A DNA stretch of 64,000 bases from Spirochaetota bacterium (GCA_963664815.2 CAXXHB010000003.1:3648001-3712000), one strand, 5' to 3'. Counted from the first letter of the stretch, positions 22,881-52,560 are shown. Notes: generated by a model from the letters alone, not told the origin. Made by a program: numbers and translations.

Positions 22881-22904
22881 GCTATACGAAGTTTAGCCTC
22901 TTTT

Positions 22905-25531: not shown

Positions 25532-25605
25532 TATATATTATTTTTAATCCCATCCGCGCATGAATGCGTGGTCATTCCTTAAATTGTCATACCATGACTC
25601 CGGCA

Positions 25606-25715
25606 TACCAACGCTTTGCTTATGCGGCGTTTCGCGGCCTTTTACGGGATGCGGCGCAGCCCGAACGACCGGCAGTGAGTGAAGCACATAAGCTTTGCAG
25701 CTGTATCGTTGTTTG
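25606..25715 (-). other. attC-like site (family A), partly degenerate
   Basis: gcttatg...gcccgaacgacc...gagtgaagc.cataagc is homologous to the attC at 45762-45861; lies just after the stop of the upstream gene. Confidence 0.75.
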
Positions 25716-25720
25716 CGATT

Positions 25721-26134
25721 TTAAGAATATGACTGAATTATTTTTTCTGACCAGAATGTATCAAAAATATTGGCTGCGCCTCCATGTTCAACAATTTTAT
25801 TATCAATGACTTTGTCAATGTTCACTCCAGTAAACAGTAATTTTTTTCCTGATGGTTTTATTCCCAGCCATTCACCAAGATGTGTTCCCTCAGTAATTAT
25901 TTCTGAAATGACAAAATCTCTATCTATATGCTGCCGAACAATTTTAATCTTAAGATCAGGATAAGTTATCCTGACATCGATCAGATGCTGCTTCATACCT
26001 TCCAATCCTATTGGTATTATGGTTTCACCACTTCTTGCGGTGCAGTCAACTGATACATAATTTTCAACTTCATTTATGAGATTATTGGAAACAATATTCT
26101 CATAAAACTCCTTTATCATCTGTTTTTTGTCCAT
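25721..26134 (-). CDS. SnoaL-like ester cyclase
   Basis: YPDL, GTHLGEWLGIKPSGK, KIVEH. Confidence 0.85.
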   Translation of the reverse strand: MDKKQMIKEFYENIVSNNLINEVENYVSVDCTARSGETIIPIGLEGMKQHLIDVRITYPDLKIKIVRQHIDRDFVISEIITEGTHLGEWLGIKPSGKKLLFTGVNIDKVIDNKIVEHGGAANIFDTFWSEKIIQSYS

Positions 26135-26173
26135 ATATTACCTCCTTAAATTAGTTTGGCATTTGTTATTTAT

Positions 26174-37273: not shown

Positions 37274-38260
37274 TTATATTAAATCTAATTTTTTTAACAT
37301 AAATAACGGTGCAAGCAATGAATAAAAAATATATACTAAACCCACAAATGTTTCTGGGAAATCATAAAAATTTATTCTTCTTAACCATGAAATCTTTTTT
37401 TTCTTTTCATTATTAAAACTCTGCATTGACAAATGAGTTTGTTGATAAAGAATAAAAGCTTTAATTTTTCCATAATTTGAATAAGATGAATTAATAATTA
37501 CAGGGAGCCAACGTCTTCTATATAATTTTAAAATTGAAACTTTACTTCCAGGAACGGGTTTACAATGTCTTATCTCTGTAATTTTTTCCCATTCTATTTT
37601 TCTTTTGATTAACAAGCGCCATTGTATGCAGTACTTTGAAGTGATAGTTATCTTTTCATAAAAAATGACTCTGGCTAGAAAAAAATATAATATAACAGGA
37701 TGTATCATAATTAAAATTGGTTTTATTTGAAATGAATAGTTTTCCCATCCAACATTTTTCGTGTATACTATAAGCATAATTATTACAATAGAAATATAGG
37801 TCGAAAAAAACGGCATAAGTCTTTTTCCTGTATAATTCCCAGTAATACCATAGCGTAGAATATTCTGTATGTCATCTTTGAAAGGTTCATCCGGATATTT
37901 ATTTTCAACATTTCCCCAGATATCATATCCGGGAACTGGTCCATTCCATAAATTATATGGTAATTGAAAAATTTTATTCACTCTTTTTGATTTTTTAAAA
38001 AATAAGATTACAATTCCAATAGAAATAATCATTACAATTATTTTACTATATATCTCAAATGAACCGAAACCGATATATTCTTGAATCTGCTTATCGATCC
38101 TGTATTCAATACTTCCGCTATAAAATACCAGCTCAAGAAAATCATATATACAATAATAAGTAATAATTATTGCCATCAAGAATGGAATACATATTAAACA
38201 AATAGAAATCAATTTAAAACTAAAATTTTTTATTACCTGTTTCAGACCCCACCTCTGCAA
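37274..38260 (-). CDS. Hypothetical membrane protein
   Basis: 328-aa AT-rich ORF with several TM segments. Confidence 0.6.
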   Translation of the reverse strand: MQRWGLKQVIKNFSFKLISICLICIPFLMAIIITYYCIYDFLELVFYSGSIEYRIDKQIQEYIGFGSFEIYSKIIVMIISIGIVILFFKKSKRVNKIFQLPYNLWNGPVPGYDIWGNVENKYPDEPFKDDIQNILRYGITGNYTGKRLMPFFSTYISIVIIMLIVYTKNVGWENYSFQIKPILIMIHPVILYFFLARVIFYEKITITSKYCIQWRLLIKRKIEWEKITEIRHCKPVPGSKVSILKLYRRRWLPVIINSSYSNYGKIKAFILYQQTHLSMQSFNNEKKKKISWLRRINFYDFPETFVGLVYIFYSLLAPLFMLKKLDLI

Positions 38261-38343
38261 TTTTTTACATACTTAAAAATATTTCACATCATCATATTTT
38301 GCTTTTCTTCCGGCATGAATGCCGGATTTCTTAATTTTGCTTT

Positions 38344-38745
38344 GTCTGGCAGGTCCGGGAGCTCGCAACCCCCTTTCCCCCATAAGAACCTTACGTGAAA
38401 GTTTCTACAACGGGTACTTACTGCGTCCGCCTTCAAACGGCTCAATCCGTCTGAAGCTGATTATACTACCAGCCGCTGTTATCTGCTTTATTCCCATTTT
38501 TCTATAATAGAAATAATCAGAATCTTCTTTTAAAAATGGGTTCCTGTCAAGACTTATCATTCTGTGCCGTACAATTTTAATGTGTCCCGCAGTAATGAGA
38601 ATCTCCTCATCAGAGCAGAAAGTTTAAGTACCGGTTTTTAAGCCATAAAGAATTTTTCATCGGGTGTCTGAATCTGCCCCATCTCCATAGAGCCTGAAAA
38701 AGAACAGTATCGAGTTTTTTAAAGGCTTCTTTTAAAACCATTCCA
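38344..38745 (-). mobile_element. Group II intron 3' remnant, copy 2 (decayed maturase tail + DV/DVI)
   Basis: Homologous to 43791-44215; minus strand has gagccg...ctttcacgtaaggttc and ends cctgccagac. Confidence 0.8.
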
Positions 38746-38994
38746 CGGAGTTTTTGAAATTTTGCATAAAATCGCCATTCACAGTCTATCAGATAACTGT
38801 AGAAATAATTATTTTACGGGATTATTATTTTTTCCGGTAAGATCATCGGATTATTATTGAATGTTATTACAAAGACCGGGAGAAAATGGGATTCAATTCC
38901 TATATATACTGTTCGATCTTAATAGCCCCTTCAAGTATTACCGGATCTGAATCTGATTCAATTCCTATATATACTGTTCGATCCCAGTGGTTTC

Positions 38995-39119
38995 GTCCAA
39001 CAGAGTCTTAACATAGTTGTTGTCTGAAGATTGAAATTATCTGTTCAATGTTTTTATACCGCTAATAAAGATTAGCGGTTTTTTTGAGGCAACTACGTTA
39101 AGACTTCTATAAGTTATGC
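38995..39119 (-). other. attC-like site (family B, 125 bp)
   Basis: Minus strand GCATAAC...GTTGGAC; imperfect arms agagtcttaacatagttg / caactacgttaagacttct. Confidence 0.85.
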
Positions 39120-39146
39120 GAAGGTCTGCCCCCGGTTTTCAATAGC

Positions 39147-39479
39147 TTAATTTCTGATTAATCTTTTTAAGATTATATCTTCGAAATTTCTTCTAGAGTC
39201 AATCATTGAAAGAATATATACTTTTTGTTCTTCTATTCTATAAACTATTCGCCATGGAGTTATAATCAGTTCTCGATAATTACTAATATTATGAAAATCA
39301 AGCTCAGGAACAGTTCTTCCTCGTTCAGGAAAATTTTCTAATTTGATTGTTTGCTTTTTGATTTTTTCAAATATTTCTGCGGCTGTATTCAGACTATCTA
39401 ATGAAATATATTCAATTATTTCAATAAGATCATCTTGTGCAATTTTTGTCCAATATACTGTATATTTTTTTGATGTCAT
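39147..39479 (-). CDS. RelE/ParE family toxin (copy 1)
   Basis: VYWTKIAQDDL...FPERGR.VPE...YRELI..PWRIVYR. Confidence 0.9.
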   Translation of the reverse strand: MTSKKYTVYWTKIAQDDLIEIIEYISLDSLNTAAEIFEKIKKQTIKLENFPERGRTVPELDFHNISNYRELIITPWRIVYRIEEQKVYILSMIDSRRNFEDIILKRLIRN

Positions 39480-39483
39480 ATTC

Positions 39484-39762
39484 TTATCTTTTTTTTAGAA
39501 TTTTATCTTCGATTGCAGAAAAGAATGAATTCTGCTCTGTGAATTTTCCATTTTTTACATCGTTTTCTCCCATGGAAATTAGTTTTAAAATCCCTATCGC
39601 GTTTTGCATTGAATCATAACTTTCTGTATCCATTAATACAGCTTTTGCTTCCCCATTTTGAGTTATGATAATTGGACGATGAGTTTCGTTAACTTGATCA
39701 AGCATGTTTGCAGCATTTGCTTTTACGAAAGAAATGGGGCGTATATCTTGTTTGGTATTCAT
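39484..39762 (-). CDS. Phd/YefM family antitoxin (copy 1)
   Basis: IRPISFVKANAA...PIIITQNGEAKAVL. Confidence 0.9.
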   Translation of the reverse strand: MNTKQDIRPISFVKANAANMLDQVNETHRPIIITQNGEAKAVLMDTESYDSMQNAIGILKLISMGENDVKNGKFTEQNSFFSAIEDKILKKR

Positions 39763-39861
39763 TTTTTTATCCTCTATGGTGTTTCTATTGATCTAAATAT
39801 GGTACTAAATTAAGTTTTAAAGGTCAAGAATAATTTTCTAAAACGACGGGGGCAGACTTTC

Positions 39862-39924
39862 GCATAACGTTAAGAAGAGTATCTTAATCAATCTTCTCCG
39901 ATTGAGATACTCTTCAAGTTGGCC
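39862..39924 (-). other. attC-like site (family C, 63 bp)
   Basis: Minus strand GGCCAAC...GTTATGC; arms gaagagtatctt..atc / gattgagatactcttc. Confidence 0.85.
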
Positions 39925-40068
39925 GGCTTTTTTATAACATCACTTCGACGCCGCTCATTTCGACATACTCAATACAAGCAGTGCATCGCCTGTTATATGC
40001 CGGCAGGTGGTCACTGAGCCTGCCGTCTATGATGAAAATCAACACTTTTTAAAAATATTTATAAAAAA

Positions 40069-41154
40069 TCATGCAGCTAATGCTGACTCATATTGTTTCA
40101 GCTTTGCAGCATGGTTTTTTTCATCAGTATAGTAATACATTTTATTCTCTTTCAGCATATTATAAATGATAACGATGATCTTGCGCATTACTGCAACACG
40201 AACCTTTCCGGCATTCTTACCTTTCCTTTTTTCAAAATAAAACTTATGAAGCCTGTCACTTGAATCAATGAAATGCTTTATACTCTCTGTCATTAAACTG
40301 GCAGTCAATGTCCTTGACTGTTTATTCACCTTACCGACATGTGCTGTGTTCCCTGATGCATCTATTCGGGGAGCCGTTCTTAAATACGAGCATAGTTTTT
40401 TAGCACTGGGAAATCTGTTAATATCTGCAATATCTGACATTATTGCAATAGCAAGAAAAGGGCTTATCCCGCGAATACTTGTCAGAATCCGTATCTCTCT
40501 GTAAAATATCTTCCCTTTCTTCAGAATTGCTTTCTTTATATTCTCTTTTTCATTTTCAAGAGAATTGAGCGTTGATAGCAGAATATTGATTTGAACTGAA
40601 AATACCTCACTGACAGGCAGACTCCTGATCCTGTCCTGTATGTGGTTGTATGAAAGATTTTCCTTTGAAAATCCGAAAATACCATTCTGACGGAAAAGTG
40701 ACCTGATACGATTCTTTGTCATACATGCCTGTTTCTTGAGCATCTCATACGTTACAAACATGCTTCTCAACTCGCTAACTTCTTTTGACGGAATGTAGAT
40801 TGTCGGAAATTCATCCGATGATTTATCATAGCATACATAATATTTCAATTTCTTTGCCAGTTTAATGGCATCAATCTTATCAGTCTTCTTCCTGGAATTC
40901 GATATTATTGAAAACTTGTAAGGATCTACAACATAGACCTCCTTTACATATTCTTTAACCTGTTCCACAAACCAGAATGTATTGGTTGATGCCTCAACGA
41001 CTATATAATCCTCAATCATCAGTTTACTTAAAAATCTCTTAAATGCTTCTGTTTTTAAACTGACTGTTTCCATTGTCAGTTCGTCCGTTTTTTCCCCTAA
41101 AACTGCTGCTTTAAAACTATCTGTGTGAAGATCTATCCCATAAAACATTGACAA
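40069..41154 (-). CDS. IS110-family transposase/recombinase
   Basis: GIDLH, VVEAS, KTDKIDA (DEDD); RGIS...RF.SAKKL.SY...P...ASG. Confidence 0.93.
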   Translation of the reverse strand: MSMFYGIDLHTDSFKAAVLGEKTDELTMETVSLKTEAFKRFLSKLMIEDYIVVEASTNTFWFVEQVKEYVKEVYVVDPYKFSIISNSRKKTDKIDAIKLAKKLKYYVCYDKSSDEFPTIYIPSKEVSELRSMFVTYEMLKKQACMTKNRIRSLFRQNGIFGFSKENLSYNHIQDRIRSLPVSEVFSVQINILLSTLNSLENEKENIKKAILKKGKIFYREIRILTSIRGISPFLAIAIMSDIADINRFPSAKKLCSYLRTAPRIDASGNTAHVGKVNKQSRTLTASLMTESIKHFIDSSDRLHKFYFEKRKGKNAGKVRVAVMRKIIVIIYNMLKENKMYYYTDEKNHAAKLKQYESALAA

Positions 41155-41164
41155 TCAATCCCCC

Positions 41165-41400
41165 TTATGATATTTTTGATACTCAAGACCAACTTGACGG
41201 GTTAAATGAATGGTCCACTCGTCTATTCGGGTTTCAGGGAGAATATCCCGTTCCCATTCTTTTGGTCAGGAAGGAGGCTGGACTAAACGAAGCAACGGGC
41301 TTTTTGTAATGTCACTTACAGATATCCCAGGCAAGCTCTCAGCCTCCTTCTCTTCTTGAATATCTAAGAAGAGAATTTACCTCATTCCTGCAACCGTCAA
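41165..41400 (-). ncRNA. Putative bridge/seek RNA region of the IS110 element
   Basis: Stem aaggaggctg/cagcctcctt encloses cgaag and ggcaagctc, which match the target; cgtctat matches the donor end. Confidence 0.65.
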
Positions 41401-41450
41401 GATTTTGTTGATTGTCATCATAAAAACGAAGTGCAAACGTCATGTTTGCT

Positions 41451-41957
41451 CGACAGAACCGCCTGAGCAACAGCCCGATATAATATTAATGGATTTTAAA
41501 TTACCGGATTTATAATTGCAAGAATAATTCGTATGTAGAAATTTGAATAAATAAACAATTGCATCTTTATAACAACCAATATATCTGCTTTTAAAACACT
41601 GTTAAACGGCATTCCCAAGAATAAATTATCATTATTTCTCAGTTATCAGAATAAAAGTATCCCTTCATGGTCTTTTTATCGTTACCATAATCATAAGATA
41701 TTAATATGCAGATAATAATCTACAACCGCTCTGGTTCGCCGGAGGTGAACGATACCTCACCGGTTCAGGAATCTCTTTTACAATAAGCCTTCCGGTTTTG
41801 CATGTAGGGCAGCATGAAAGATTTTTACCTGTGACGCGCAGATAGATTTCACTCCATGTCTGCGGTATACTTTCATTATTCTTTTGAATTTCGTAAAACT
41901 CGCGGCATGCCTCAACAGCCTTCTTTTTATTCCGGTGAGAGAGAATTCCGAAGTACC
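41451..41957 (-). pseudogene. Truncated copy of the 3' end of the IS91-like transposase cassette (47141-47640)
   Basis: Near-identical sequence including gacagaaccgcctgag and YFGILSHRNKK...RSPP. Confidence 0.9.
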
Positions 41958-41959
41958 AA

Positions 41960-42152
41960 CAGGGCAAACAGTCCTACCCTTTGCCTGATGTTTCCCGGTC
42001 AGCCCCTGGCGGAGCAGGATGAGCTGAGCAAAGAGCTTCCTGAGGATACAGCTTCCCTGTTCTGGAAATATTTCAGGATTGATATAACTCTCTGCAGGGA
42101 GTGCGAAAAGGGACACATTCATTATATCCATGGCCAGTCGACTTACGGTTAG
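41960..42152 (+). pseudogene. Possible C-terminal fragment of a different IS91-type transposase
   Basis: FRIDITLCRECEKGHI resembles the terminal CxxCxxG motif of these transposases. Confidence 0.4.
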
Positions 42153-42405
42153 CTGTTATAAAGAGTATAGCTGTACTTCACAGATTTAAAAAACTGTTTC
42201 ATAGAGAGGATAAGTATGCCCGGAGCTTTTAAAATTTTGCATAAAATCGCCATTCACAGTCTATCAGATAACTGTAGAAATAATTATTTTACGAGTTTAT
42301 TATTTTTTCCGGTAAAATCACCGGATTTTTACTGTATGTTATTTCAAAGATCGGGATAAAACGGTATTCAAATTCCTATATATACTGTTCGATCCCAGTG
42401 GTTTC

Positions 42406-42530
42406 GTCCAACAGAGTCTTAACATAGCTGCTGTCTGAAGATTGAAATTATCTGTTTAATGTTTTTATACCGCTAATAAAGATTAGCGGTTTTTTTAAGG
42501 CAACTACGTTAAGACTTCTATAAGTTATGC
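42406..42530 (-). other. attC-like site (family B)
   Basis: Near-identical to 38995-39119; begins 9 bp after the stop of the 409-aa ORF. Confidence 0.85.
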
Positions 42531-42539
42531 GTAGTGCCA

Positions 42540-43769
42540 TTATCTATGAAAATGACAATAATCTCTATAAGTTAATATTTCACAGGGTTTGCCTTCTATT
42601 TCTCTACTTCTGCAAGGTGCCCCACATTCATGAGGTTGACGGTCAAGAAACCTATTATATAAAGATAATCTGTGTTTGACTTCTTCCTCTGTGAAAATTT
42701 CCTCAATTTGATCATCCTTTGATTTAAATGCTTTAACAATTAAAACCCCGGCTGTAGTCACTGATTGAATTAAATTATCATTTTCATTGTATATAGGTTC
42801 GCATTTATATTCATGCAATTTCGAATAATCTTTTGAATTAATCAATTCAATAATTTCTTTATCGATACCAATAAAATATTTATATTTACCAACATTGCTT
42901 GTAAGTTTTGAAAACAATTGATCAATGTCTTTACTTGAATCTTTAAATTTTATAATATTATCAACGATTAATCTTCTATCAAAGTATTCACCTAAATAAA
43001 CTTTTCCATTTAGTTTATATTTCCCAAAAAATTTATTTGCTTCAATTTTAATTTTTTTCTTTTCACCATTTAATATAGGTTTAATTATTTTATTAAAATT
43101 TCTTGAATCGAGAATATAACTTAATGTTGAAGCGTAATTTTCTAATATTGTAATAGATGGATCACCCTCATCACTATTTATATCTTCAGGTGGATCGTCA
43201 CAGATAAGACAATATGATTTTTTATTATCATTTTGATTTAAAAGATGAAAAATAGTACCATATCTTAAATGAATATTTTTTTTATTTTGCTTTTTACTTA
43301 AGATATCATTTCTCATTGTAGAATTATTTGAACCAACTGTTCCTTTTGTTTCAATTTCATATTTTTTAGAATTAATAGTAACGCTATAGTCTAGATATTT
43401 TCCATCAGTTATTGGGGCAATTTTTTTAATGCGATTTGGATTAATTTTTAATAATTCTATTGAATAGAGTAAACCTACCGCAACTCCGGAACCTTCCGAA
43501 ATCAATTTTTTAACACGATCATCATTCGATAGGTTTATGAGTGAGTTATTTTCAAATTTAATAAAAGTTGAAAATAACGATTCAAATGCTGGCACTTGAC
43601 TTTGAAGATAATCAAAATCAGATTCTTTAATGTGTTTTGGTACTTCCCACATCATCACAGCATAGCGGAATAAATCAATTTTATTTAGTTCAATAGTTGA
43701 TATTGTTTTAAATATCTGAACTTGTTTTGCACTATCATCAATTTTTATTGGTATATTTATTTTATTCAT
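42540..43769 (-). CDS. Cassette protein with a putative PD-(D/E)XK nuclease motif and a C-terminal Cys/His cluster
   Basis: SEGSG...LDY...EIETKG; CGAPC...GKPC...YCHFH. Confidence 0.6.
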   Translation of the reverse strand: MNKINIPIKIDDSAKQVQIFKTISTIELNKIDLFRYAVMMWEVPKHIKESDFDYLQSQVPAFESLFSTFIKFENNSLINLSNDDRVKKLISEGSGVAVGLLYSIELLKINPNRIKKIAPITDGKYLDYSVTINSKKYEIETKGTVGSNNSTMRNDILSKKQNKKNIHLRYGTIFHLLNQNDNKKSYCLICDDPPEDINSDEGDPSITILENYASTLSYILDSRNFNKIIKPILNGEKKKIKIEANKFFGKYKLNGKVYLGEYFDRRLIVDNIIKFKDSSKDIDQLFSKLTSNVGKYKYFIGIDKEIIELINSKDYSKLHEYKCEPIYNENDNLIQSVTTAGVLIVKAFKSKDDQIEEIFTEEEVKHRLSLYNRFLDRQPHECGAPCRSREIEGKPCEILTYRDYCHFHR

Positions 43770-43790
43770 TGGAACCTCGTTTTAATGGCA

Positions 43791-44215
43791 GTCTGGTAGG
43801 TCAGGGAGTTTGCACCCCCTTCCCCCCATAAGAACCGTACGTGAAAGTTTTACCACAGGCACTTCCTACGGTCGCCCTTCATACGACTCAAGCCGCCTAA
43901 AGCTGATTATACAACCAGCCGCTGTTATCTGTTTGTATTCCCATTTTTCTATAGTAGAAATAATCAGAATCTTCTTTTAAAAATGGGTTCCTGTCAAGAC
44001 TTATCATTCTGTGCCGTACAATTTTAATGTGTCCTGCAGTAATAAGAATCTCCTCATCAGAGCAGAAAGTCCAATCCCTGTTTCCTATGCGTTTCCAGTA
44101 CCGGTTTTTAAGCCATAAAGAATTTTTCATCGGGTGTCTGAATCTACCCCATCTCCATAGAGCCTGAAAAAGAACAGCATCGGGATTTTTAAAGGCTTCT
44201 TTTAAAACCATTACA
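43791..44215 (-). mobile_element. Group II intron 3' remnant, copy 1 (maturase tail + DV/DVI)
   Basis: FQALWRWGRFRHPMKNSLWLKNRYW...RH...NPF; gagtcgtatga...ctttcacgtacggttc; ends cctaccagac. Confidence 0.85.
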
Positions 44216-44401
44216 CGGAGCTTTTGAGACTTTGCATAAAATCGCCATTCACAGTCTATCAGATAACTGTAGAAATAATTATTTTACTGGATTATTATTT
44301 TTACCGGTAAAAATCACCGGATTATTACTGTATGCTATTTCAAAGATCGGGATAAAACGGTATTCAAATTCCTATATATACTGTTCGATCCCAGTGGTTT
44401 C

Positions 44402-44526
44402 GTCCAACAGAGTCTTAACATAGCTGTTGTCTGAAGATTGAAATTATCTGTTCAATGTTTTTATACCGCTAATAAAGATTAGCGGTTTTTTTGAGGCAAC
44501 TACGTTAAGACTTCTATAAGTTATGC
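44402..44526 (-). other. attC-like site (family B)
   Basis: Near-identical to 38995-39119. Confidence 0.85.
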
Positions 44527-44553
44527 GAAGGTCTGCCCCCGGTTTTCAATAGC

Positions 44554-44886
44554 TTAATTTCTGATTAATCTTTTTAAGATTATATCTTCGAAATTTCTTC
44601 TAGAGTCAATCATTGAAAGAATATATACTTTTTGTTCTTCTATTCTATAAACTATTCGCCATGGAGTTATAATCAGTTCTCGATAATTACTAATATTATG
44701 AAAATCAAGCTCAGGAACAGTTCTTCCTCGTTCAGGAAAATTTTCTAATTTGATTGTTTGCTTTTTGATTTTTTCAAATATTTCTGCGGCTGTATTCAGA
44801 CTATCTAATGAAATATATTCAATTATTTCAATAAGATCATCTTGTGCAATTTTTGTCCAATATACTGTATATTTTTTTGATGTCAT
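44554..44886 (-). CDS. RelE/ParE family toxin (copy 2)
   Basis: Protein identical to 39147-39479. Confidence 0.9.
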   Translation of the reverse strand: MTSKKYTVYWTKIAQDDLIEIIEYISLDSLNTAAEIFEKIKKQTIKLENFPERGRTVPELDFHNISNYRELIITPWRIVYRIEEQKVYILSMIDSRRNFEDIILKRLIRN

Positions 44887-44890
44887 ATTC

Positions 44891-45169
44891 TTATCTTTTT
44901 TTTAGAATTTTATCTTCGATTGCAGAAAAGAATGAATTCTGCTCTGTGAATTTTCCATTTTTTACATCGTTTTCTCCCATGGAAATTAGTTTTAAAATCC
45001 CTATCGCGTTTTGCATTGAATCATAACTTTCTGTATCCATTAATACAGCTTTTGCTTCCCCATTTTGAGTTATGATAATTGGACGATGAGTTTCGTTAAC
45101 TTGATCAAGCATGTTTGCAGCATTTGCTTTTACGAAAGAAATGGGGCGTATATCTTGTTTGGTATTCAT
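44891..45169 (-). CDS. Phd/YefM family antitoxin (copy 2)
   Basis: Protein identical to 39484-39762. Confidence 0.9.
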   Translation of the reverse strand: MNTKQDIRPISFVKANAANMLDQVNETHRPIIITQNGEAKAVLMDTESYDSMQNAIGILKLISMGENDVKNGKFTEQNSFFSAIEDKILKKR

Positions 45170-45268
45170 TTTTTTATCCTCTATGGTGTTTCTATTGATC
45201 TAAATATGGTACTAAATTAAGTTTTAAAGGTCAAGAATAATTTTCTAAAACGACGGGGGCAGACTTTC

Positions 45269-45331
45269 GCATAACGTTAAGAAGAGTATCTTAATCAATC
45301 TTCTCCGATTGAGATACTCTTCAAGTTGGCC
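45269..45331 (-). other. attC-like site (family C)
   Basis: Identical to 39862-39924. Confidence 0.85.
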
Positions 45332-45511
45332 GGCTTTTTTATAACATCCTGTTATATGCCGGCAGGTGGTCACATAGGGGGTAGAGAGTGCTAAAGCTAA
45401 CAGTCTTGAGCCGTATGCATACCTGCGATTTTTATTCTCTGAGTTTCCATTGGTGTCGACCAGAGAGGAAATGTTGAAGCTTCTGCCATGTTTTGTCACA
45501 AATGATATGAT

Positions 45512-45726
45512 TTACGGACATAATACCGGGCTACCATTTTCAACCATCTTTTTCCAGTTGTATATCGTTTGATCCGATATCCCCATTTCCCTGGCTATTT
45601 CCGGAATGCTTCTATTTTCCGGTGGTAATACCTTCTTGAGCACTGATTCTTTAAACCTTTTACTGTATTTCATAATCATCTCCTGATTTATTTCAGGCGA
45701 CAACTATCTTGGCACATAGGGTACAC
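45512..45726 (-). pseudogene. Truncated IS3-family left end + OrfA fragment
   Basis: KYSKRFKESVL...IAREMGISDQTIYNWKK; TG-starting end tgtacccctatgtgcc. Confidence 0.7.
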
Positions 45727-45761
45727 GGTGAATTTGACGCTTACAATTAATGCAGCATTTC

Positions 45762-45861
45762 GGCTAACGTTTTGCTTATGGAAATCGCGGCAGTTTTTTC
45801 GCCGCGATTTGGCGTAGCCCGAACGACCGCCAGGGAGTGAAGCGCATAAGCTTTGTTAGAC
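45762..45861 (-). other. attC-like site (family A, 100 bp)
   Basis: Minus strand GTCTAAC...GTTAGCC; arms gcttatg / cataagc. Confidence 0.88.
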
Positions 45862-45871
45862 GACGTATATA

Positions 45872-46315
45872 TTAGAATGTATTATTGTGATTATTGATAT
45901 TATTAATAGTATCTTTTATAAAATTCAATTTTCTTTTTTCAACAATAGATTTTGGTATATCTAGACCTTTATTAATATCCAATGATACTCGTGTAATAAT
46001 ATTATTAATATTAGTTGTTACTTTCATTTTAATTGATTTAATATTGTGTCGTTTGAAATCTAATATTTGTATTGCAACGAGTATTCCATTAGTTGATTCA
46101 ATAAAACAAATATATTCAGTTTTGCGAACAACAGTTTTTTTAATATTATATTCGAATAATATTTCAAATATATCCTTATTTTCATCATAACCATACTTTT
46201 GAATCTTGGGAATGTTATCTAAAGATGGCAGTACATTATAATTACATCCATTTATTTTTTCATTAGAATAATTATTGAAATATGAATTATACAAATTATT
46301 AATTTCTTTATTCAT
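45872..46315 (-). CDS. Hypothetical cassette protein, possibly DUF2283-like
   Basis: YDENKDIFEI...GILVAIQILDF; overlaps the upstream gene (ATGA). Confidence 0.5.
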   Translation of the reverse strand: MNKEINNLYNSYFNNYSNEKINGCNYNVLPSLDNIPKIQKYGYDENKDIFEILFEYNIKKTVVRKTEYICFIESTNGILVAIQILDFKRHNIKSIKMKVTTNINNIITRVSLDINKGLDIPKSIVEKRKLNFIKDTINNINNHNNTF

Positions 46316-47049
46316 ATATTACCTCTTTCAAATAAAAACGATATTGAATTTATCATTTCTTCAATTTTTCTAGACTTTTTAACATCGAGCGACATATTAA
46401 TTTCATTATCAATTACTACAACACCCCATGTCATAGATTTTGTAAATGATTTTAAAGGAAGACAAAAAAACCAAGATGATTTTGAATTTACCTTGCGAGC
46501 AATTTTTTTATTTAAAGACAATTCTTTTTCGCATTGATTGAAATAAATGTCTGGGTTTTCTGGATCATAATCGTTAATGCTTTTTTGGATAATGTTTTGT
46601 GTTGCAAAACACACTCCAGCACAACCTTCTCCATGTTTAAATTTTATTTTTGTATTTATAATTGGAATTCGCGTTTGATATCTGGCTATTTGTTTTAGAT
46701 ACGCTTTTGAACTGTTCATTTTGTAGGCTTTAAAAATTGTAACCCTTAAATGATGTTTATGCTCATCTTTTAAATCAACAGTCATTTTATCAAATATTAA
46801 GTGAGCCATATTTTTGAACATTGATTTGTCTTTTGTTAGTTTATTATAAACAATGTTTAAAACATGTACAATAATATAAATAATAAAAAGTACTAAAAAT
46901 ATTTTTACAGAATTTTTCGAAATCGTTTCATAAGATCCAGGTTTGAGGTAGTCATCAAAAATAAGTATTTTGCTTTCCGAAATGCAATTGTAAAAATAGC
47001 CAATAATTGCCACTATAATAATTTTTATAATTTCAAATACTATTTTCAT
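46312..47049 (-). CDS. Hypothetical cassette protein, 2 TM + GAF-like domain
   Basis: Two N-terminal hydrophobic segments; GEGCAGVCF, CLPL, WGVVVID. Confidence 0.55.
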   Translation of the reverse strand: MKIVFEIIKIIIVAIIGYFYNCISESKILIFDDYLKPGSYETISKNSVKIFLVLFIIYIIVHVLNIVYNKLTKDKSMFKNMAHLIFDKMTVDLKDEHKHHLRVTIFKAYKMNSSKAYLKQIARYQTRIPIINTKIKFKHGEGCAGVCFATQNIIQKSINDYDPENPDIYFNQCEKELSLNKKIARKVNSKSSWFFCLPLKSFTKSMTWGVVVIDNEINMSLDVKKSRKIEEMINSISFLFERGNI

Positions 47050-47080
47050 AATACACTACCTTATTAAGTTTATATATGTC

Positions 47081-47143
47081 GTCTAACGTTAAGAAGAGTA
47101 TCTTAATCAATCTTCTCCGATTGAGATACTCTTCAAGTTGGAC
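47081..47143 (-). other. attC-like site (family C) closing the recombinase/transposase cassette
   Basis: Minus strand GTCCAAC...GTTAGAC; interior identical to 39862-39924. Confidence 0.88.
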
Positions 47144-47385
47144 AGAACCGCCTGAGCAACAGCCCGACACAATATTAATGGATTTTAAATTACCGGATTT
47201 ATAATTGCAAGAATAATTCGTATGTAGAAATTTGAATAAATAAACAATTGCATCTTTATAACAACCAATATATCTGCTTTTAAATTATTGTTAAACGATA
47301 CTTTCCGGAATAAATTATCATTATTTCTCAGTTATCAGAATGAAAGTATCCCTTCATGGTTTTTTATAGTTCCATAATCATAGTA

Positions 47386-48642
47386 TTAATATATAGATAA
47401 TAATCTACAACTGCTCTGGTTCGCCGGAGGTGAACGGTACCGTACCGGTTCAAGAATCTCTTTTACAATAAGCCTTCCGGTTTTGCATGCAGGGCAGCAT
47501 GAAAGATTTTTACCTGTAATACGCAGATAGATTTCACTCCATGTCTGCGGTATACTTTCATTCTTCTTTTGAATTTCGTAAAACTCGCGACATGCCTCAA
47601 CAGCCTTCTTTTTGTTTCTGTGTGATAGAATTCCAAAGTATCTGATGCGGACAAACCTTCTCGGTACAACATGCATTATGAAGCGGCGAATAAAAGACTC
47701 TGCCGGGAGTTCCATGAGCTTTTCCCTGTTCCCGTCAGCGTAATCCCTGTATCTGAATCTTATTATATCATCTTTAACAGAAACTATCCGGTGATTGCTG
47801 ATGGCTATGCGATGAGTATACCTCGCAAGATATTCAATTACACTCTCTTTGCCCTGGAAGGATTCTTTGAGATATACAACCCACTCCGCGGCGAAGAGTG
47901 AATCAATCATTGTCTGAAAATTTATGGCATCAGTGACATGCGTACCTTTAAGATATAATTTTTCTGTTCTATAAAGTTCCTTCAATCCCTGCAGAAAGAG
48001 GCTTCTGAACCGCAGCTTCAGAACCTGCACAGGTACAAAATAGTTATTCGGAGCATGAATCCATCTCTGCTTTTTCTCCGAATAACCTCCGCCCGGAACC
48101 ACACAATGAAGATGGGGATGTAAATTAATCTTCTGCCCCCATGTATGTAGGATGGAAAAGAATCCTATATCAGCGCCGAAGTATTTTTCATCACCGCTGA
48201 CAGAGAGTAGTGTCATTCTGCATACATCAAACATAAGGTCGTAGATAACTCTTTTGTTTCTGATAACAACCGGGTTAAGCATATCTGGAAGTGTGAATAC
48301 AACATGAAAGTAAGTGAACGGGAGAACTTCATTTTTTCTTTCCATAATCCACTTCTCTTTTTTCATCGACTGGCACTGTGGACAATGCCTGTTTCTGCAT
48401 GAGTTGTAGAGAATCACTTTATGGCCGCAGATGCTGCATTCCTCAACTCTTCCGCCGAGGGCTTCTGTCCTGCAGATCTCAATTGAACGCATCACCTTTC
48501 TTTCATGCAAAGAGACTTCGGGATGTTTCAGAAGATAAGACTCATCGTAATTCCGGAATATTTCATTAACGGTTGGCTGATTCATTTTTAAATCTGTCTG
48601 CATAGACATCAAGAGGACTTCGGGCCACGGTCTTCTCTTCAT
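47386..48642 (-). CDS. IS91-family (Y2 HUH) transposase
   Basis: CRT..LGG, YNSCRNRHCPQCQ, YFHVVFTLP, LHTWG...HPHLH, YLARY, RIRYFG; the true start is probably MNQP (~48583). Confidence 0.95.
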   Translation of the reverse strand: MKRRPWPEVLLMSMQTDLKMNQPTVNEIFRNYDESYLLKHPEVSLHERKVMRSIEICRTEALGGRVEECSICGHKVILYNSCRNRHCPQCQSMKKEKWIMERKNEVLPFTYFHVVFTLPDMLNPVVIRNKRVIYDLMFDVCRMTLLSVSGDEKYFGADIGFFSILHTWGQKINLHPHLHCVVPGGGYSEKKQRWIHAPNNYFVPVQVLKLRFRSLFLQGLKELYRTEKLYLKGTHVTDAINFQTMIDSLFAAEWVVYLKESFQGKESVIEYLARYTHRIAISNHRIVSVKDDIIRFRYRDYADGNREKLMELPAESFIRRFIMHVVPRRFVRIRYFGILSHRNKKKAVEACREFYEIQKKNESIPQTWSEIYLRITGKNLSCCPACKTGRLIVKEILEPVRYRSPPANQSSCRLLSIY

Positions 48643-49429
48643 TCAGATGCACATAAACCAGAGTCGTAGTCAGATGTCTGTGTCCCAGAAACTTCTGAAG
48701 TTGAAACACTCCGCTCCCTGTCTCTATCATATGTGTCGCAAAGGAGTGACGCAGTGTATGAATACCGCACTGTTTTGTTATACCGGCTCTCTTCTTCGCG
48801 CGATGATACGCATGCTGTACTGCCCTGATTGACATCTGTTCACCTGGGTATCTTCCGCAAAACAGCCAGTTGTCCGGCCTGTAGGTTTTCCAGTATTGCT
48901 CAAGCTGGATTAAACATATTTCTGAAAGCAGGGTATACCTGTCCCTGCCCCCTTTGGCATCCCGTACTTTAAGACGCATTGAATCCCGTGAGATATCGTC
49001 TACCTTCAGATTTACAAGTTCACCCACTCGGAGACCTGAGGAATACGTGAGCATCAGTATTGTTTTATGTTTCAGATTATCAGCGCTGTGAATAATCCGA
49101 AACACCTCTTCTACCGTAAATACTTCCGGAAGTTTTCTTTTCTTTTTCTGAATGGGAATGTTTTCAACTTCAACGTCTCTGCCGATTGTCTGGATAAAAA
49201 AATAGCATATTGCGCTTCTTGCCTGACGGAATGATGATTCTGATAGTTTCCGGTCTTTGATTAAGTAATACAGGTAGTCTTTTATGGTTTCTTTTGTGAT
49301 CTCCTCCGGCGGTTCCTTGCAGTATTCAAGAAAACTGCTCAAGCTCCGGTAATAGGTGATCTGTGTCCTCAGGCTGTATCCGCGAAGGGCAAGGTCTCTT
49401 TTGTAGCTTTGTAAAATCTGTTCTGACAT
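48566..49429 (-). CDS. Tyrosine recombinase (IntI-related, without the integron-specific insertion)
   Basis: LRGYS.RT..Y SAM-like N-terminus; YSSGLRVGE, AKGGRDR, HTLRHSFATH, LGH...TTLVY. Confidence 0.95.
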   Translation of the reverse strand: MSEQILQSYKRDLALRGYSLRTQITYYRSLSSFLEYCKEPPEEITKETIKDYLYYLIKDRKLSESSFRQARSAICYFFIQTIGRDVEVENIPIQKKKRKLPEVFTVEEVFRIIHSADNLKHKTILMLTYSSGLRVGELVNLKVDDISRDSMRLKVRDAKGGRDRYTLLSEICLIQLEQYWKTYRPDNWLFCGRYPGEQMSIRAVQHAYHRAKKRAGITKQCGIHTLRHSFATHMIETGSGVFQLQKFLGHRHLTTTLVYVHLNEEKTVARSPLDVYADRFKNESANR

Positions 49430-49533
49430 GAAGATTTCCTCCGTTAATTTTGGTTAACGGAAGTTTATCATGGATTGTAATAAAAGTGAAATCTTTCATA
49501 TGGGATAGAAAGCCGCCGCCTTCAGGCGGTTTT

Positions 49534-49634
49534 GTTCAACGCCTTGCTTACACGACGTCGCGGCGTCTTTTTGCCGCGATGTGGCGAAGCCCAAGCGAGG
49601 TACTCCGAGCGCAGCGTTGTAAGCTTTGTTGTGC
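49534..49634 (-). other. attC-like site (family A, 101 bp)
   Basis: Minus strand GCACAAC...GTTGAAC; arms gcttac / gtaagc. Confidence 0.88.
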
Positions 49635-49652
49635 GCAGTTGATAATTCACAT

Positions 49653-51344
49653 TCAAGTTAATGACCACCGAGTATTTCTTGTATTACCTTTTTTTTGAAT
49701 GAATTTTATCTGTGAAAGGAAACTACTTAAACTAGATTTGTTTGAAAATGTTAATATGTCTGATAGTTCATCACTTGAAGCTATATTATATTTTTTTAAA
49801 TATGTATATAGCGAAACATATTTACTTGAGTTTGGTGCGATTTTAGGCTTTTTTGAAATTTTAAAATAATCAAGAAATTCATTACTTACAGAAATAAAAA
49901 TGTCATTCTTATCACCATGTATTACGAAATAATGCTTTAAAATACCTTCTTCTATTGAAGATTTTATGTCTTCCCATGGATTTAACGAAATTTTCATCAT
50001 TTCTTTTTCCAGGTCTTTACATGAAATAGTACCTTTAAGTGAGACTTTATTTAATATGAATAATTCACTCAATTTAAACTTATCAATATTATTTGTTGTT
50101 ATTACAAAGATTTGTGGGATACAATATTCAGTAACCATTGAGACTTCTATTGAATCATTATTTTCACAAAAAATCGGAAAACTTCGTCCATAGATCAATG
50201 ATCCAATTCCCATTCTTAAAACACCCATTCCTGCTCTATCAACAAGATTAAAGAGCATTAAACATTTTGCTAATTCTTTATTTCTATGACGTGGATCATG
50301 AAATGCAATATTAGATTCATTTACACCACCATAAAAATTCCCTGGATTTGTTATTTTTATACCATTTGATGTGAAAATAATTGATATTAATCCATTGATT
50401 GAATAATCTCGATGAACAATAGCATTTAATAATGCTTCATGAAAAGCTTTTTCATCTAACGCAGGGCAATTATATTTATTGTCATTGAATTCTATTTGTA
50501 ATATTTTATTATATTCGCTAAATTTATTTTTAATAATTTTTATTGAATTCCAAATATTATCGCTCCAAATATAGTTTTGAAGTAACTCACCTTGATTGGA
50601 TTTATAACTAAAACGAAATTCATAATCACCTAGGTGTTGTTTTATTTGATCTTTATGGCCGAACATCAACACTGCTGTTTTTGTAACAACACCATTTTTC
50701 GTTGCATTAATTGCTTCCAAAAAGTCAATATTACTAATATCCGTATTAAGATTTCTTCTAAATATAAAATCTTTTTTTGCTTCAATTAATGTTTCCTGAT
50801 TTAATTCTTCAATTTTTATATGATCAATCTCATCAGCACTCCAATCATATGTCTGAAGATTCTTTACAGCAGATTCTATTTCGTATGGCTCCATAGGTCT
50901 GCTGCTTTTACCATCTCTAATGTATACTTTACCACTTGTAGTTGTTACTAGTACGTGGTTTATTTTAGGAACATCAATAACCACATAACGGATAAGTTTA
51001 TGAAAATGATAATAAATTTTAAAATCAATTTTCGGCTTTATTCTTCCTCTTAATCTTTCGGATGTAACGTCAAAATCAATTTCTTGAAATCCATTTAATT
51101 GCTTTTCTATTAAAGCTAAATCATTTTTATCGTTATCGATTACTCCAATGATTATTTTACCACCAAATTTATTAGCAAGAGCTACAAATTCGTTTGCTAA
51201 TTCCTTGTCATTATTCAAGGCATTAATATCTTTATAATTTTTGAATTCAATAGTTTCCGATTCAACAGATTGACTTGGTTCTTTTTCAAGTTTTAAAAAT
51301 ATTTGATCAATTGTTTTTATACTCATAATATCCTCAATTATCAA
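49653..51344 (-). CDS. AlbA_2 (Schlafen-like) + HATPase_c_4 domain protein
   Basis: ESETIEFK, VALANKFGG.IIIGV.D, HEALLNAIVHRDY, NPG, RNKELA, VDRAGMG. Confidence 0.88.
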   Translation of the reverse strand: MIIEDIMSIKTIDQIFLKLEKEPSQSVESETIEFKNYKDINALNNDKELANEFVALANKFGGKIIIGVIDNDKNDLALIEKQLNGFQEIDFDVTSERLRGRIKPKIDFKIYYHFHKLIRYVVIDVPKINHVLVTTTSGKVYIRDGKSSRPMEPYEIESAVKNLQTYDWSADEIDHIKIEELNQETLIEAKKDFIFRRNLNTDISNIDFLEAINATKNGVVTKTAVLMFGHKDQIKQHLGDYEFRFSYKSNQGELLQNYIWSDNIWNSIKIIKNKFSEYNKILQIEFNDNKYNCPALDEKAFHEALLNAIVHRDYSINGLISIIFTSNGIKITNPGNFYGGVNESNIAFHDPRHRNKELAKCLMLFNLVDRAGMGVLRMGIGSLIYGRSFPIFCENNDSIEVSMVTEYCIPQIFVITTNNIDKFKLSELFILNKVSLKGTISCKDLEKEMMKISLNPWEDIKSSIEEGILKHYFVIHGDKNDIFISVSNEFLDYFKISKKPKIAPNSSKYVSLYTYLKKYNIASSDELSDILTFSNKSSLSSFLSQIKFIQKKGNTRNTRWSLT

Positions 51345-51430
51345 TTGCGCACAACTTGTACTATCCGAATAATCTTTCGCATAACACAGGAAAAATCCGG
51401 AAAAATGCGAAAGAAGTTACGTACAGTAAC
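51336..51430 (-). other. Candidate attI-like primary site at the head of the array
   Basis: The first cassette starts GTTGTGC at 51355 with no attC palindrome upstream; related boxes tatccgaata / tttcgcata / atgcgaaag. Confidence 0.5.
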
Positions 51431-52114
51431 CCCTATATCTCCAGTGGACTCTTAATATTCCCGGATTTCCCCGTACATACATGTGTATAAATCATAATTG
51501 TATCAGGACTTTACCGTCCTGATAGTTCCTGTATTCTTCGTTACTCTGTTCAGGCAGTTGTGTAGTAAATTTATCCCTTGATGAGTTATCTTTAACCGTT
51601 TTCCATTCCGTCATTTACAACATTCCGTTGAAACCAGTCCGCACAAATATCCCCCGTTGCTACTCCCCTTCTCCTGATCTTTTAATAAACGGTTTCCATG
51701 ATGATCCCTGCAGGATGGGGCTGTATGCATTTAATTTATTCACTCATTAAACAGCAGTTATTTCAATACTTTTTTTCAAATATTCAAATAAATATCCGGC
51801 TTGTTTCAAGATTGGCATTTGCAGCCCTCAGGAAACCTTGAGTGTGTTTTATTAAGGGGCTTCGCCCCTTATACCCTGTAAAAAAGTTGTCTCTTTTTTA
51901 TAAAGAACGTTAATTACTTTGTTGAATTGGCTGCTTTGCAATAAAAACATATGATGTGTTATATGCACAAATTGTGCCGAAAACTGCTGTACACTGCAGT
52001 GATTATACCCAATCTGTCGCCATGTATATGCCGTTTATCCGCCACGAATCCGCCATCTATCCGGCGAAGTAACATCAGAATTTTTTTGCTTTTTCAGTAA
52101 ATTTTTTAAATTCC

Positions 52115-52560
52115 CCGGTTTCTTAAACCACACCGCTCCCCGGGTGTTTCCAGTGAAACTGGAAATGTATCAAGGGGACCACTATAGGAAAACTGTTTTC
52201 TTAAAACTTATTAATATTATCAATATACCAGGATTAATTCATGGACAGCTCCTCCCGGTTTCTTAAACCACACCGCTCCCCGAGTGTTTCCAGTGAAACT
52301 GGAAATGTATTGAGGGGATCACTACAGGATTAAAAGTCCTGCAGGATTTCCTGCAGAGTGAACAGACATTGGTTCATGTGCTCTTTGTTGATCTCTTTGA
52401 TGCTGTCCGTAATGTAATATTATCGATATGCCAGTGTCAGCTCCGGAACCACCTTTTCCGGTTTCTTAAACCACACCGTTCCCCGAGTGTTTCCAGTAAA
52501 ACTGGAAATGTATCGAGGGGACCACTATAGGATTAAGATCTCTGCAGGATTTTCTGCAGA
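52115..52560. repeat. Three ~75-bp hairpin-containing direct repeats (52115, 52255, 52458)
   Basis: ccggtttcttaaaccacaccg.tccccg.gtgtttccagt.aaactggaaatgtat..agggga.cacta.agga; copies 2 and 3 share ~28 bp more. Confidence 0.9.

Follow-up and report, generated by a model that had tools for sequence, protein, structure and literature searches.

Positions 38,995 to 51,430 of a 64,000-nucleotide (nt) stretch of Spirochaetota DNA, hereafter the window (G000:C3:3648001-3712000, from a source genome of 5.2 Mb, ~38% G+C and three contigs, with a completeness of 96%), are probably the integrase-proximal part of one of six co-oriented integron-type arrays in this genome. We consider it likely that this decaying array belongs to a variant kind of integron, whose enzyme is a relative of the integron integrase IntI devoid of the IntI-specific I2 insertion. 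Given that the recombinase at the head of the array in the window is reduced to a stump, the locus is by definition a cluster of attC sites lacking an integrase (CALIN), with eight sites where at least two suffice and no protein over the IntI cut-off in either the window or the genome. The first-pass annotation had called the stretch a non-canonical gene-capture platform, and this stands as the best reading, with integron-type grammar and no canonical IntI, except that the recombinase lying inside the array turned out not to be the enzyme of the platform.

Sites and cassettes of the array

Our scan for AAC...GTT hairpins found 16 of them in the whole window, eight in the stretch (38999-39115, 39866-39920, 42410-42526, 44406-44522, 45273-45327, 45766-45857, 47085-47139 and 49538-49630) and eight more elsewhere, the latter being unrelated sequences. 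The eight sites of the stretch, 63-127 nt long, all carry AAC and GTT boxes, in agreement with what is expected of attC (an imperfect palindrome of ~57-141 bp with the boxes RYYYAAC and GTTRRRY), and belong to three families of 63, ~100 and ~125 nt. The palindromes reported in the first-pass annotation were thereby recovered. Its four pairs of inverted ends were also reproduced exactly, namely 49628/51355 (19/20), 47137/49540 (17/19), 45855/47087 (16/17) and 39113/39868 (19/20), and the single orientation of the cargo was borne out by the longest open reading frame (ORF), which is on the minus strand in all seven inter-site intervals. Four cassettes of the window are intact: those of the 563-aa gene, of the 245/147-aa pair and of both toxin-antitoxin copies. 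From the head to the far end, the array reads as follows:

49635-51355, minus: cassette 1, with a 563-aa protein (49653-51344) having Schlafen AlbA_2 and HATPase_c_4 domains; own ends 19/20, A opposite C at position 11
49534-49634, minus: attC-like site of the 100-nt family (f100b), GCACAAC-AAA-GCTTACA...TGTAAGC-AAGGC-GTTGAAC
47144-49533, minus: IS91-family unit in cassette position, with a tyrosine recombinase (48566-49429) and a Y2 transposase (47386-48642)
47081-47143, minus: attC-like site of the 63-nt family
45862-47080, minus: two-ORF cassette of 245 aa (46312-47049) and 147 aa (45872-46315, weak NUC match); own ends 16/17, A opposite C at position 11
45763-45861, minus: attC-like site of the 100-nt family (f100a)
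45332-45762, no strand assigned: insertion-sequence (IS) debris, with an HTH_Tnp_1 ORF (45512-45703, minus) and, by eye only, an IS66-like C-terminal fragment (plus)
45269-45331, minus: attC-like site of the 63-nt family
44528-45268, minus: toxin-antitoxin cassette, copy 2, Phd/YefM (44891-45169) and ParE (44554-44886); own ends 19/20
44401-44527, minus: attC-like site of the 125-nt family (f125), with reversed spacer asymmetry (7 vs 2 nt) and a plus-strand terminator-like hairpin inside
42532-44400, minus: cassette of a 409-aa ORF (42540-43769), with a conserved 185-nt leader and a 5'-truncated group II intron upstream
42405-42531, minus: attC-like site of the 125-nt family
39925-42404, minus: scrambled interval, with a leader fragment, a partial second IS91-unit end (41452-41955) and an IS110-family insertion
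39862-39924, minus: attC-like site of the 63-nt family
39121-39861, minus: toxin-antitoxin cassette, copy 1, Phd/YefM (39484-39762) and ParE (39147-39479), 100% identical to copy 2
38994-39120, minus: attC-like site of the 125-nt family, the last intact site and far end of the array
37274-38993, minus: leader, degenerate intron remnant (weak domain V match at 38344-38445) and a 328-aa ORF (37274-38260), with no recognisable site after this interval

The cargo had been described as toxin-antitoxin and defence-like. The toxin-antitoxin part holds, as the adjacent small genes of the two identical copies match ParE_toxin (4.9e-17) and PhdYeFM_antitox (3.2e-17), while the defence-like part found little backing, the PADLOC matches being partial and weak and falling on the 563-aa protein only.

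When nhmmer was run genome-wide with the three families of the window, the same families were found in 56 distinct sites, seven of them scattered and the other 49 in six co-oriented clusters on contig C3:

C3 1367560-1400382, plus: 16 sites
C3 1964088-1970199, minus: 4 sites
C3 2541064-2567724, minus: 10 sites
C3 3188001-3210156, minus: 7 sites
C3 3587206-3589612, minus: 2 sites
C3 3670529-3697640, minus: the cluster of the window, 10 sites, two of them decayed relics

When 18 sites of the 100-nt family, drawn from four genomes, are aligned, the consensus is ATATAAC-AAA-GCTTACCCG...CnGGTAAGC-AAGAC-GTTATAT, and compensatory double changes occur at 12 of the 23 predicted stem pairs. Because of this covariation, and because of the 56 sites with their six co-oriented clusters, we regard the arrays as more than a product of chance.

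The heads of the arrays

The end of the array in the window holds the following features:

51356-51432, minus: attI-like region, conserved among heads up to ...GGATAGTACAA|GTT and diverging right after the GTT at 51355-51353
51433-51705, minus: 3' stump of a recombinase gene, stop codon at 51433-51435, last 36 codons 72% identical to the intact gene
52072-52560, no strand assigned: three copies of a 146-nt repeat between the stump and the 181-aa gene, dispersed and in tandem elsewhere in the genome
52709-53254, minus: 181-aa gene with a weak DUF6266 match, one paralogue lying beyond the head of each of the six arrays

The intact counterpart of the stump is a 357-aa gene (G000:C3:1972136-1973209), to whose 3' end the DNA at 51361-51705 is 74% identical; the head recombinase of the window is thus cut down to its last ~90 codons. 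The array at 1.964-1.970 Mb follows this intact gene downstream on the same strand, and according to tblastn the five other arrays are headed by recombinase remnants: protein remnants were found at the window array and at those near 2.569, 1.364 and 3.590 Mb, and N-terminal ones near 3.212 and 1.596 Mb. In addition, the DNA just past the array (767 nt, 51356-52122) is 91-93% identical to the same-end flanks of the arrays near 2.569 and 1.364 Mb.

We aligned six heads, that of the window, four others of the source genome and one of a related genome (G006), and all are conserved through the stop codon to ...A|GTT, diverging from there into GTTGTGC, GTTATAT, GTTAGGT or GTTATCT. The junction is at the matching place downstream of the stop codon in the six heads, its GTT being 77 nt past the stop codon in the window, that is, 3' of the gene, unlike the classical layout. 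The layout of these heads therefore has what is expected of attI, a position next to the integrase gene and a crossover at G|TT, and judging from the sequence the junction looks like the product of an attI x attC event. The first cassette has no preceding hairpin, which makes the gene strand the top strand and the order of each cassette the classical one of GTT, ORF, and AAC plus hairpin. The arm asymmetry of the sites had suggested the plus strand as their top strand, with inverted cargo; we rejected this candidate because the heads join their cassettes at GTT without a preceding hairpin, and also because the A/C rule given below fits the gene strand. Hence, the integron-type grammar proposed in the first-pass annotation is upheld by the cassettes' own inverted ends, their co-oriented genes and the attI-like junction.

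The general order of a head is a paralogue of the 181-aa gene, the 146-nt repeats (in the window and in the similar heads compared), the recombinase gene or its remnant, the attI-like junction and then the same-strand cassettes. The 181-aa protein has a basic N-terminus and ~30 full-length paralogues at 70-92% identity, of which about nine are at array heads and about twenty are not; several are followed by one to many 146-nt repeats, as at C3:1360346-1360891, with tandem repeats at C3:1361060-1362090. The 181-aa gene may be a landing site of the platform or an unrelated multi-copy element. A scan of the head for promoters and terminators gave no excess over shuffled sequences. Behind the intact recombinase, the first cassette (G000:C3:1970281-1971977) carries a ParA-like ATPase (AAA_31) and a 223-aa protein, an unusual cargo for a first cassette.

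The head recombinase is a probable relative of IntI without I2

The 357-aa recombinase scores 235.3 bits against NF040815, the XerA/integron integrase model (cut-off 220), and 220.7 bits against TIGR02249, whose cut-off of 265 bits we took as the mark of a canonical IntI; the latter match comes in two stretches that leave model positions 180-234 unmatched. It is 34-39% identical to four canonical IntI of related genomes and keeps conserved motifs of the catalytic domain, HSLRHSFATH among them, and in this alignment ~41 residues of the IntI-specific segment are missing while ~85 extra residues are present at the N-terminus. Accordingly, the ~35-residue insertion near patch III (intI_Cterm, or I2) that distinguishes canonical IntI is absent. 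Among solved proteins, VchIntIA (2a3v, E 1e-44) is the closest by sequence, with the archaeal XerA and then XerD coming next, and Foldseek returned the same order of relatives with the AlphaFold model (predicted local distance difference test, pLDDT, 79.7). In a tree of 37 rows that included six canonical IntI, the two Xer-like proteins of the genome, the recombinase of the IS91 unit and relatives of the head recombinase, the head recombinases, the IS91 recombinase and the canonical IntI form one clade (92/93) apart from the two Xer-like proteins, with IntI itself monophyletic (100/100).

The extra N-terminal domain is modelled with five strands and two helices (pLDDT 90). HARP is such a fold, known as a fork-recognition module in SMARCAL1 and UvsW (described in PMC4666394), and the model makes the domain possibly HARP-like, which we take as a lead and not as a result. 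The HARP score of the first member is 20.3 bits against a cut-off of 25; Foldseek on this domain gave nothing at E <= 0.001, with the HARP domain of SMARCAL1 at rank 3, and the top row of VIA-align was the N-terminus of T4 UvsW (Z 6.8, root-mean-square deviation 3.5, 64 residues), tied with unrelated small folds. A profile of the domain found 3800 matches at E <= 0.001 among 1.84 billion representatives, many of them in tandem. As these matches are in proteins of all sizes, the domain is a general one and no marker of the recombinase family.

The same order of recombinase and array in other genomes

Full-length orthologues of the head recombinase (41-66% identity) are found in 25 of the 63 other genomes of the family and in 6 of the 7 of the genus, as a single match in all but three genomes and often near a contig end. 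Three genomes (G006, G007 and G028) hold co-oriented arrays, made of the 100-nt family and a 148-nt variant, downstream of the gene and on its strand. In G006, assembled in one contig, the first site is ~320 nt from the stop codon of the recombinase. The gene is present there in a single copy, and 27 of the 40 site matches are within 96 kb adjoining it, 26 on the strand of the gene, with the other 13 matches in smaller clusters elsewhere. A run of seven near-identical sites of 146-150 nt, ~400 nt apart, is also found in this genome (G006:C1:4413688-4416647, locus L055; L056:1467-1614); its intervals have mostly short open frames, the longest of 192 aa, and look like largely "empty" cassettes.

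More distant relatives were collected by scanning one genome per species, and 80 loci of the 590 found were kept. The best named ones are in Spirochaetota assemblies (up to 58% identity), which is what points to this phylum for the source genome, and further ones are in Nitrospirota, Bacteroidota, Bacillota, Ignavibacteriota, Thermodesulfobacteriota and some Archaea. Around these 80 loci, the density of hairpins is 3.4 per 10 kb downstream of the gene (98 in 287.5 kb) vs. 1.6 upstream (93 in 581.5 kb). The contig breaks off within 500 bp of the gene on the downstream side in 27 loci and on the upstream side in 5. In 64 downstream hairpins the 3' spacer is the longer one, in 18 it is the 5' spacer, and in 10 both are equal; the corresponding upstream numbers are 32, 38 and 10. 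Where at least 4 kb was available on both sides (23 loci), the downstream density was higher in 16. Repeated site families were found downstream of the gene in Bacillota (L109, L104 and L088), Bacteroidota (L129, L136 and L096) and Ignavibacteriota (L128), and the longest inter-site ORF, taken over 11 loci, is on the recombinase strand in 49 intervals and on the opposite strand in 6, with one ORF per interval in the clean arrays.

A canonical intI elsewhere in the genome would, as the first-pass annotation had pointed out, turn the stretch into an ordinary CALIN; the search with TIGR02249 returned none over the cut-off in the source genome, which is 96% complete. None was found either in the seven genomes of the genus or in the five distant array-bearing genomes, where the best matches are the insertion-less genes themselves. 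Among 61 relatives of the same order, canonical IntI exceeded the cut-off in five, two of the 36 in the same family and three of the four in one other family, and the two family members concerned (G015 and G019) have no match to the head recombinase. The flanks of the canonical intI genes of G040, G051 and G056 showed no comparable arrays with nhmmer and the three families or with our own scanner, nor did two short intI contigs of G019 and G015, searched with nhmmer only.

These results bear on the main rival explanation, that the stretch is an ordinary attC cluster left over by a canonical integron whose classical IntI was lost or is elsewhere, the head recombinase being a bystander or a later insertion. 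The few canonical IntI of the order and family leave room for such an origin, and the decay of the arrays in the source genome fits a leftover cluster; besides, clusters of this kind are frequent where intI is absent, and Cury et al. 2016 (PMC4889954) judged the insertion-less recombinases next to attC sites not to be IntI. What speaks against a leftover cluster is the order of recombinase and then array on the same strand, in G006, G007 and G028 and at loci of three other phyla, together with the attI-like junction at the matching place in all six heads, the lack of canonical IntI over the cut-off in any of the seven congeners or five distant array genomes, a site architecture unlike that of real attC sites, and no such sites in the fetched flanks of four canonical intI genes from three related genomes. 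We therefore hold this rival to be unlikely and prefer the variant integron with its own insertion-less integrase.

Architecture of the sites and strand asymmetry

A cassette of these arrays runs from GTT and the R' arm through one or more ORFs to the R'' arm with AAC, followed by a short spacer and by an L stem that is a perfect duplex of 7-9 bp; a branched, variable loop comes next, and then the L' half, the longer spacer and the G. The spacers measure 3 vs. 5-6 nt. For comparison, we used two real attC sites and one cassette start of a class-3 integron plasmid, in which the spacers are 5 and 6 nt and two extra bases are on the R''-L'' arm, in keeping with the classical rule of two extrahelical bases on this arm of the folded bottom strand (as given in PMC3053210). 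Such extrahelical bases are absent from the sites examined here, all with a perfect L stem.

The other difference is in the R arm, which is ~10 bp long with the pattern GTT-R-K-N-Y-G-M-M-A in its R' half, and a cassette's own ends pair over 12-20 nt, vs. 7 in classical attC. The 6 nt after the upstream GTT and the 6 nt before the cassette's own AAC pair at five or more of six positions in 35 of 61 cassettes, compared with 17 of 71 when both sides are taken from a single physical site and with 9% when pairs are drawn at random. We then took the cassettes with positions 1-10 fully paired and positions 12-17 paired at four or more of six, and in all 20 that qualified, from 7 loci (window 4, G006 8, G007 2, L109 2, L104 1, L088 1, L128 2), position 11 has an A at the start of the cassette and a C at its end. 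The class-3 cassette pairs normally at this position (one cassette, by eye). On the bottom strand, position 11 is a G.T wobble and on the top strand an A.C mismatch, and from these sequences the asymmetry may bias which strand folds or is bound.

The dispersed-repeat explanation must be weighed against this architecture. It holds that there is no cassette system and that the palindromes are dispersed repeats in a plastic region, whether like miniature inverted-repeat transposable elements (MITE), like repetitive extragenic palindromes (REP), or IS91 ends or intron target hairpins. In its favour, copies of the 63-nt family adjoin IS91-end remnants at most of the places where such remnants occur, the 125-nt site mostly precedes one and the same 185-nt leader and truncated intron, with different ORFs after them, and one full-length intron is within a 100-nt site. 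We regard it as very improbable, since the matched ends are cassette-specific with an invariant A opposite C, the clean arrays hold a single ORF per interval, the heads diverge exactly at GTT, and the 125-nt site with its leader is not the 5' sequence of an intron. The latter candidate, a group II intron 5' part, was discarded with no Rfam match to domains D1-D4 and because a full-length relative in G061 shares only the C-terminus of the reverse transcriptase (RT) and domains V-VI.

The 125-nt sites (38994-39120, 42405-42531 and 44401-44527) hold, on the plus strand, a hairpin resembling a terminator, ACCGCTAAT...ATTAGCGGT with a T run behind it, and the leader after them, which is nearly always present, starts with TTGGACGAAACCACTG. 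At C3:1373987 and C3:1375382, the 125-nt site abuts a 5'-truncated 63-nt site with no cassette between them.

The recombinase inside the array belongs to an IS91 unit

The first-pass annotation had stated that the only tyrosine recombinase of the window is inside a cassette and is without the IntI insertion. This is correct for intact genes, as the 287-aa recombinase at 48566-49429 is the only intact one and the IntI-specific segment is absent from it, but it overlooked the second recombinase, the stump at 51433-51705. The 287-aa gene overlaps, and is co-oriented with, a 418-aa transposase of the IS91 family, which scores 429.5 bits against NF033538 (cut-off 125) and carries the Pfam domains Y2_Tnp and Zn_Tnp_IS91. 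The ends of the unit read ACA(G/A)AACCGCCTGA, and partial copies of its transposase-distal 100-500 nt recur elsewhere at about a dozen positions, in most cases next to a 63-nt site. In the pair of inverted ends 47137/49540, the 14-nt repeat internal to the GTTG/CAAC boxes also ends the partial second copy of the unit at 41452, and being common to both copies it makes this pair at least partly the terminal repeat of the IS.

The recombinase inside the array is the partner of the IS91 transposase and not the integrase of the platform. As a candidate for the latter role, it could count on being the only intact one in the window and on its place within the IntI-related clade of the tree. We rejected it, and consider it the least probable of the explanations weighed here, since it overlaps a clear IS91 transposase inside a unit with its own terminal repeats, exists as a single copy in mid-array and at no array head, and has as its nearest tree relative a gene (L127) with no hairpins within 10 kb on either side. 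Besides, the pairing with IS91 is on record: the preprint 10.1101/542381 describes an "integron-like" subgroup of tyrosine recombinases that includes those of IS91 and IS3, has no IntI insertion, and contains in its IS91-borne members the closest insertion-less relatives of IntI. The recombinase of the array is thus of a known kind.

Decay, mobile elements and neighbouring sequences

The array is interrupted by the IS91 unit, an IS110 copy, IS debris and 5'-truncated group II intron remnants, and the arrays of the source genome are far less tidy than those of G006. The IS110-family insertion (~40024-41289, transposase 40069-41154) is 98% identical to a copy at C3:2542329-2543594. In the 409-aa cassette, the intron remnant is on the gene strand and keeps the RT C-terminus (43897-44211) and domains V-VI (43791-43891, RF00029 40.2 bits vs. 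a gathering score of 40), with a GIIM-like C-terminal fragment only and the 5' part absent.

This truncated intron ends in ...CCTACCAGAC|TGCCATTAAAA (window 43780-43800). Judged from the R'' arm of the 409-aa cassette, this end falls ~11 nt inside the former R' arm, where the conserved A/C mismatch is located. A group II intron of full length (G000:C3:3194618-3196447; L019:2618-4447, minus), with a 413-aa frame containing RT and a 5' GTGTG, sits in the variable loop of a 100-nt-family site on the cassette strand, unlike the group IIC-attC introns, which are placed at the R'' box in antisense.

Contigs assembled from public runs break at the repeated sites, and their joints 45371/45373->47141/47142 match an IS110-free form of the interval ~40020-41450. 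This IS110-free interval, present in runs X1, X3 and X5, comes from paralogous loci or from strains without the insertion.

Farther from the stretch, there are decayed 100-nt-family sites at 22529-22610 and 25608-25697, the AAC box being gone in both and the GTT box in one of them as well. The genes around them (21977-27142) are small and on the minus strand: a 162-aa ORF, BrnT, a methyltransferase, a glyoxalase, SnoaL and a Zn-dehydrogenase. A short ORF downstream of BrnT may be its candidate antitoxin. This region looks like an older, fossil part of the array, split off by plus-strand genes and an IS3.

Points against the variant integron and its proposed working

Several results weigh against the variant integron or its generality. 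The sites were called with a home-made AAC...GTT scanner and not with the attC covariance model of IntegronFinder, and the background of this scanner is ~1.6 matches per 10 kb. Among the 23 loci flanked by at least 4 kb on either side, hairpins are sparser downstream in 4 and equally dense in 3. Matched ends are kept in just 4 of the 30 adjacent site pairs of the source genome, whose arrays are therefore mostly fossil, and in the public-run contigs the joints 49630->51353 and 44523->45271 have 22-23 nt on the short side with the hairpin kept, and no recombination was observed. The 125-nt family has the opposite spacer asymmetry (7 vs. 2 nt), and its conserved block extends 10-16 nt past GTT. 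As for the enzyme, the placement of IntI among insertion-less rows is weakly supported (80/93 and 81/93), no hairpins accompany several short relatives that have no N-terminal domain, and the array-bearing relative L128 also has no such domain. The Pfam HARP model (PF07443) matches 11 of 13 family members, with a best E of 1.2e-5, below the gathering score, and the structural Z scores of the domain are middling. The judgement of Cury et al. 2016 on insertion-less neighbours, cited above, stands on the same side.

In spite of these points, we infer that the arrays of this genome would have been built, and would be shuffled, by the 357-aa recombinase, of which the gene at G000:C3:1972136-1973209 is the intact copy. 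The substrates of the enzyme would be folded attC-like hairpins and the attI-like site, joined at G|TT, and it would act in trans on the array of the window. It may choose the strand by the A opposite C found at position 11 of the extended R stem, a feature that would stand in for the extrahelical bases of classical attC. In a wider sense, I2-less recombinases, most of them with a structure-sensing N-terminal domain, might underlie a second class of integrons, one widespread in Spirochaetota, Bacillota, Bacteroidota and Ignavibacteriota, with a Xer-sized R arm and a strand choice by A.C/G.T, either as intermediates between Xer and IntI or as a sister line; we give this generalization about an even chance.

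The I2 insertion is regarded as the invention that enabled cassette capture, and IntegronFinder defines integrons by it. If the proposal is right, cassette arrays can be maintained by an enzyme without I2, which could show how integrons originated and would make this origin testable with natural proteins. The lack of intermediates is named as an obstacle to reconstructing the I2 step in PMC7790495. In addition, part of the excess of integrase-less attC clusters, and the near-absence of integrons from Firmicutes and Bacteroidota described in PMC9024848, would be explained. Under the wider generalization, the I2-less recombinases would be living intermediates, or a sister line, and many "integrase-less" clusters and the integron lack of Firmicutes would be artefacts of the criteria by which integrases are recognised. 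We found no description of such an I2-less integron system in the literature searched, which covered few subscription journals, and an earlier description is possible.

Comparison with known systems

The sedentary chromosomal integrons, such as the Vibrio superintegron, and the mobile integrons of classes 1-3 likewise have an integrase of the IntI/Xer lineage beside attI, and mostly single-ORF, co-oriented cassettes that start at GTT and end with AAC and a hairpin. Further points in common are the pairing of a cassette start with its own R'' box, the presence of toxin-antitoxin cassettes and a high similarity of the sites within a genome. In contrast, the integrase here has no I2/intI_Cterm segment and carries an extra N-terminal domain, its gene points towards the cassettes with the attI-like junction after the stop codon, the L stem has no extrahelical bases, and the R arm of ~10 bp with A opposite C replaces one of 7 bp; the spacers of 3 vs. 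5-6 nt also differ from the 5 vs. 6 nt of the two class-3 sites. Integrons whose integrase is co-directional with the cassettes, including a Spirochaete precedent, share the direction seen here. These co-directional integrases are known to carry the IntI insertion, which is absent from the head recombinase.

IS91 elements with a tyrosine recombinase resemble the unit at 47144-49533, whose recombinase is of the same insertion-less "integron-like" subgroup, while the unit here, in contrast to the described elements, is in cassette position between two attC-like sites. Taken alone, the window fits the CALIN as defined by Cury et al. 2016 (PMC4889954) and in IntegronFinder 2.0 (PMC9024848), with at least eight sites and no IntI in the window or genome; the difference is that here the stump of a dedicated non-canonical integrase is at the head and intact copies head sister arrays. 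In the CALIN of Halorhodospira halochloris, as described in PMC7923331, the intron remnants likewise lie on the cassette strand and retain only the RT C-terminus and domains V-VI, and that genome, too, has no intI but does have toxin-antitoxin cassettes, whereas here the same truncated remnant with a fixed leader occurs about a dozen times and a candidate integrase is present. Finally, the Xer recombinases acting on the folded single-stranded hairpin of the CTX phage (PMC7790495) are likewise insertion-less enzymes working on a hairpin that mimics a two-arm core with an unpaired centre, a feature which the sequence of our sites suggests as well; but in the case of CTX one phage genome integrates at dif, while the putative system described here consists of many-cassette arrays beside a dedicated enzyme.

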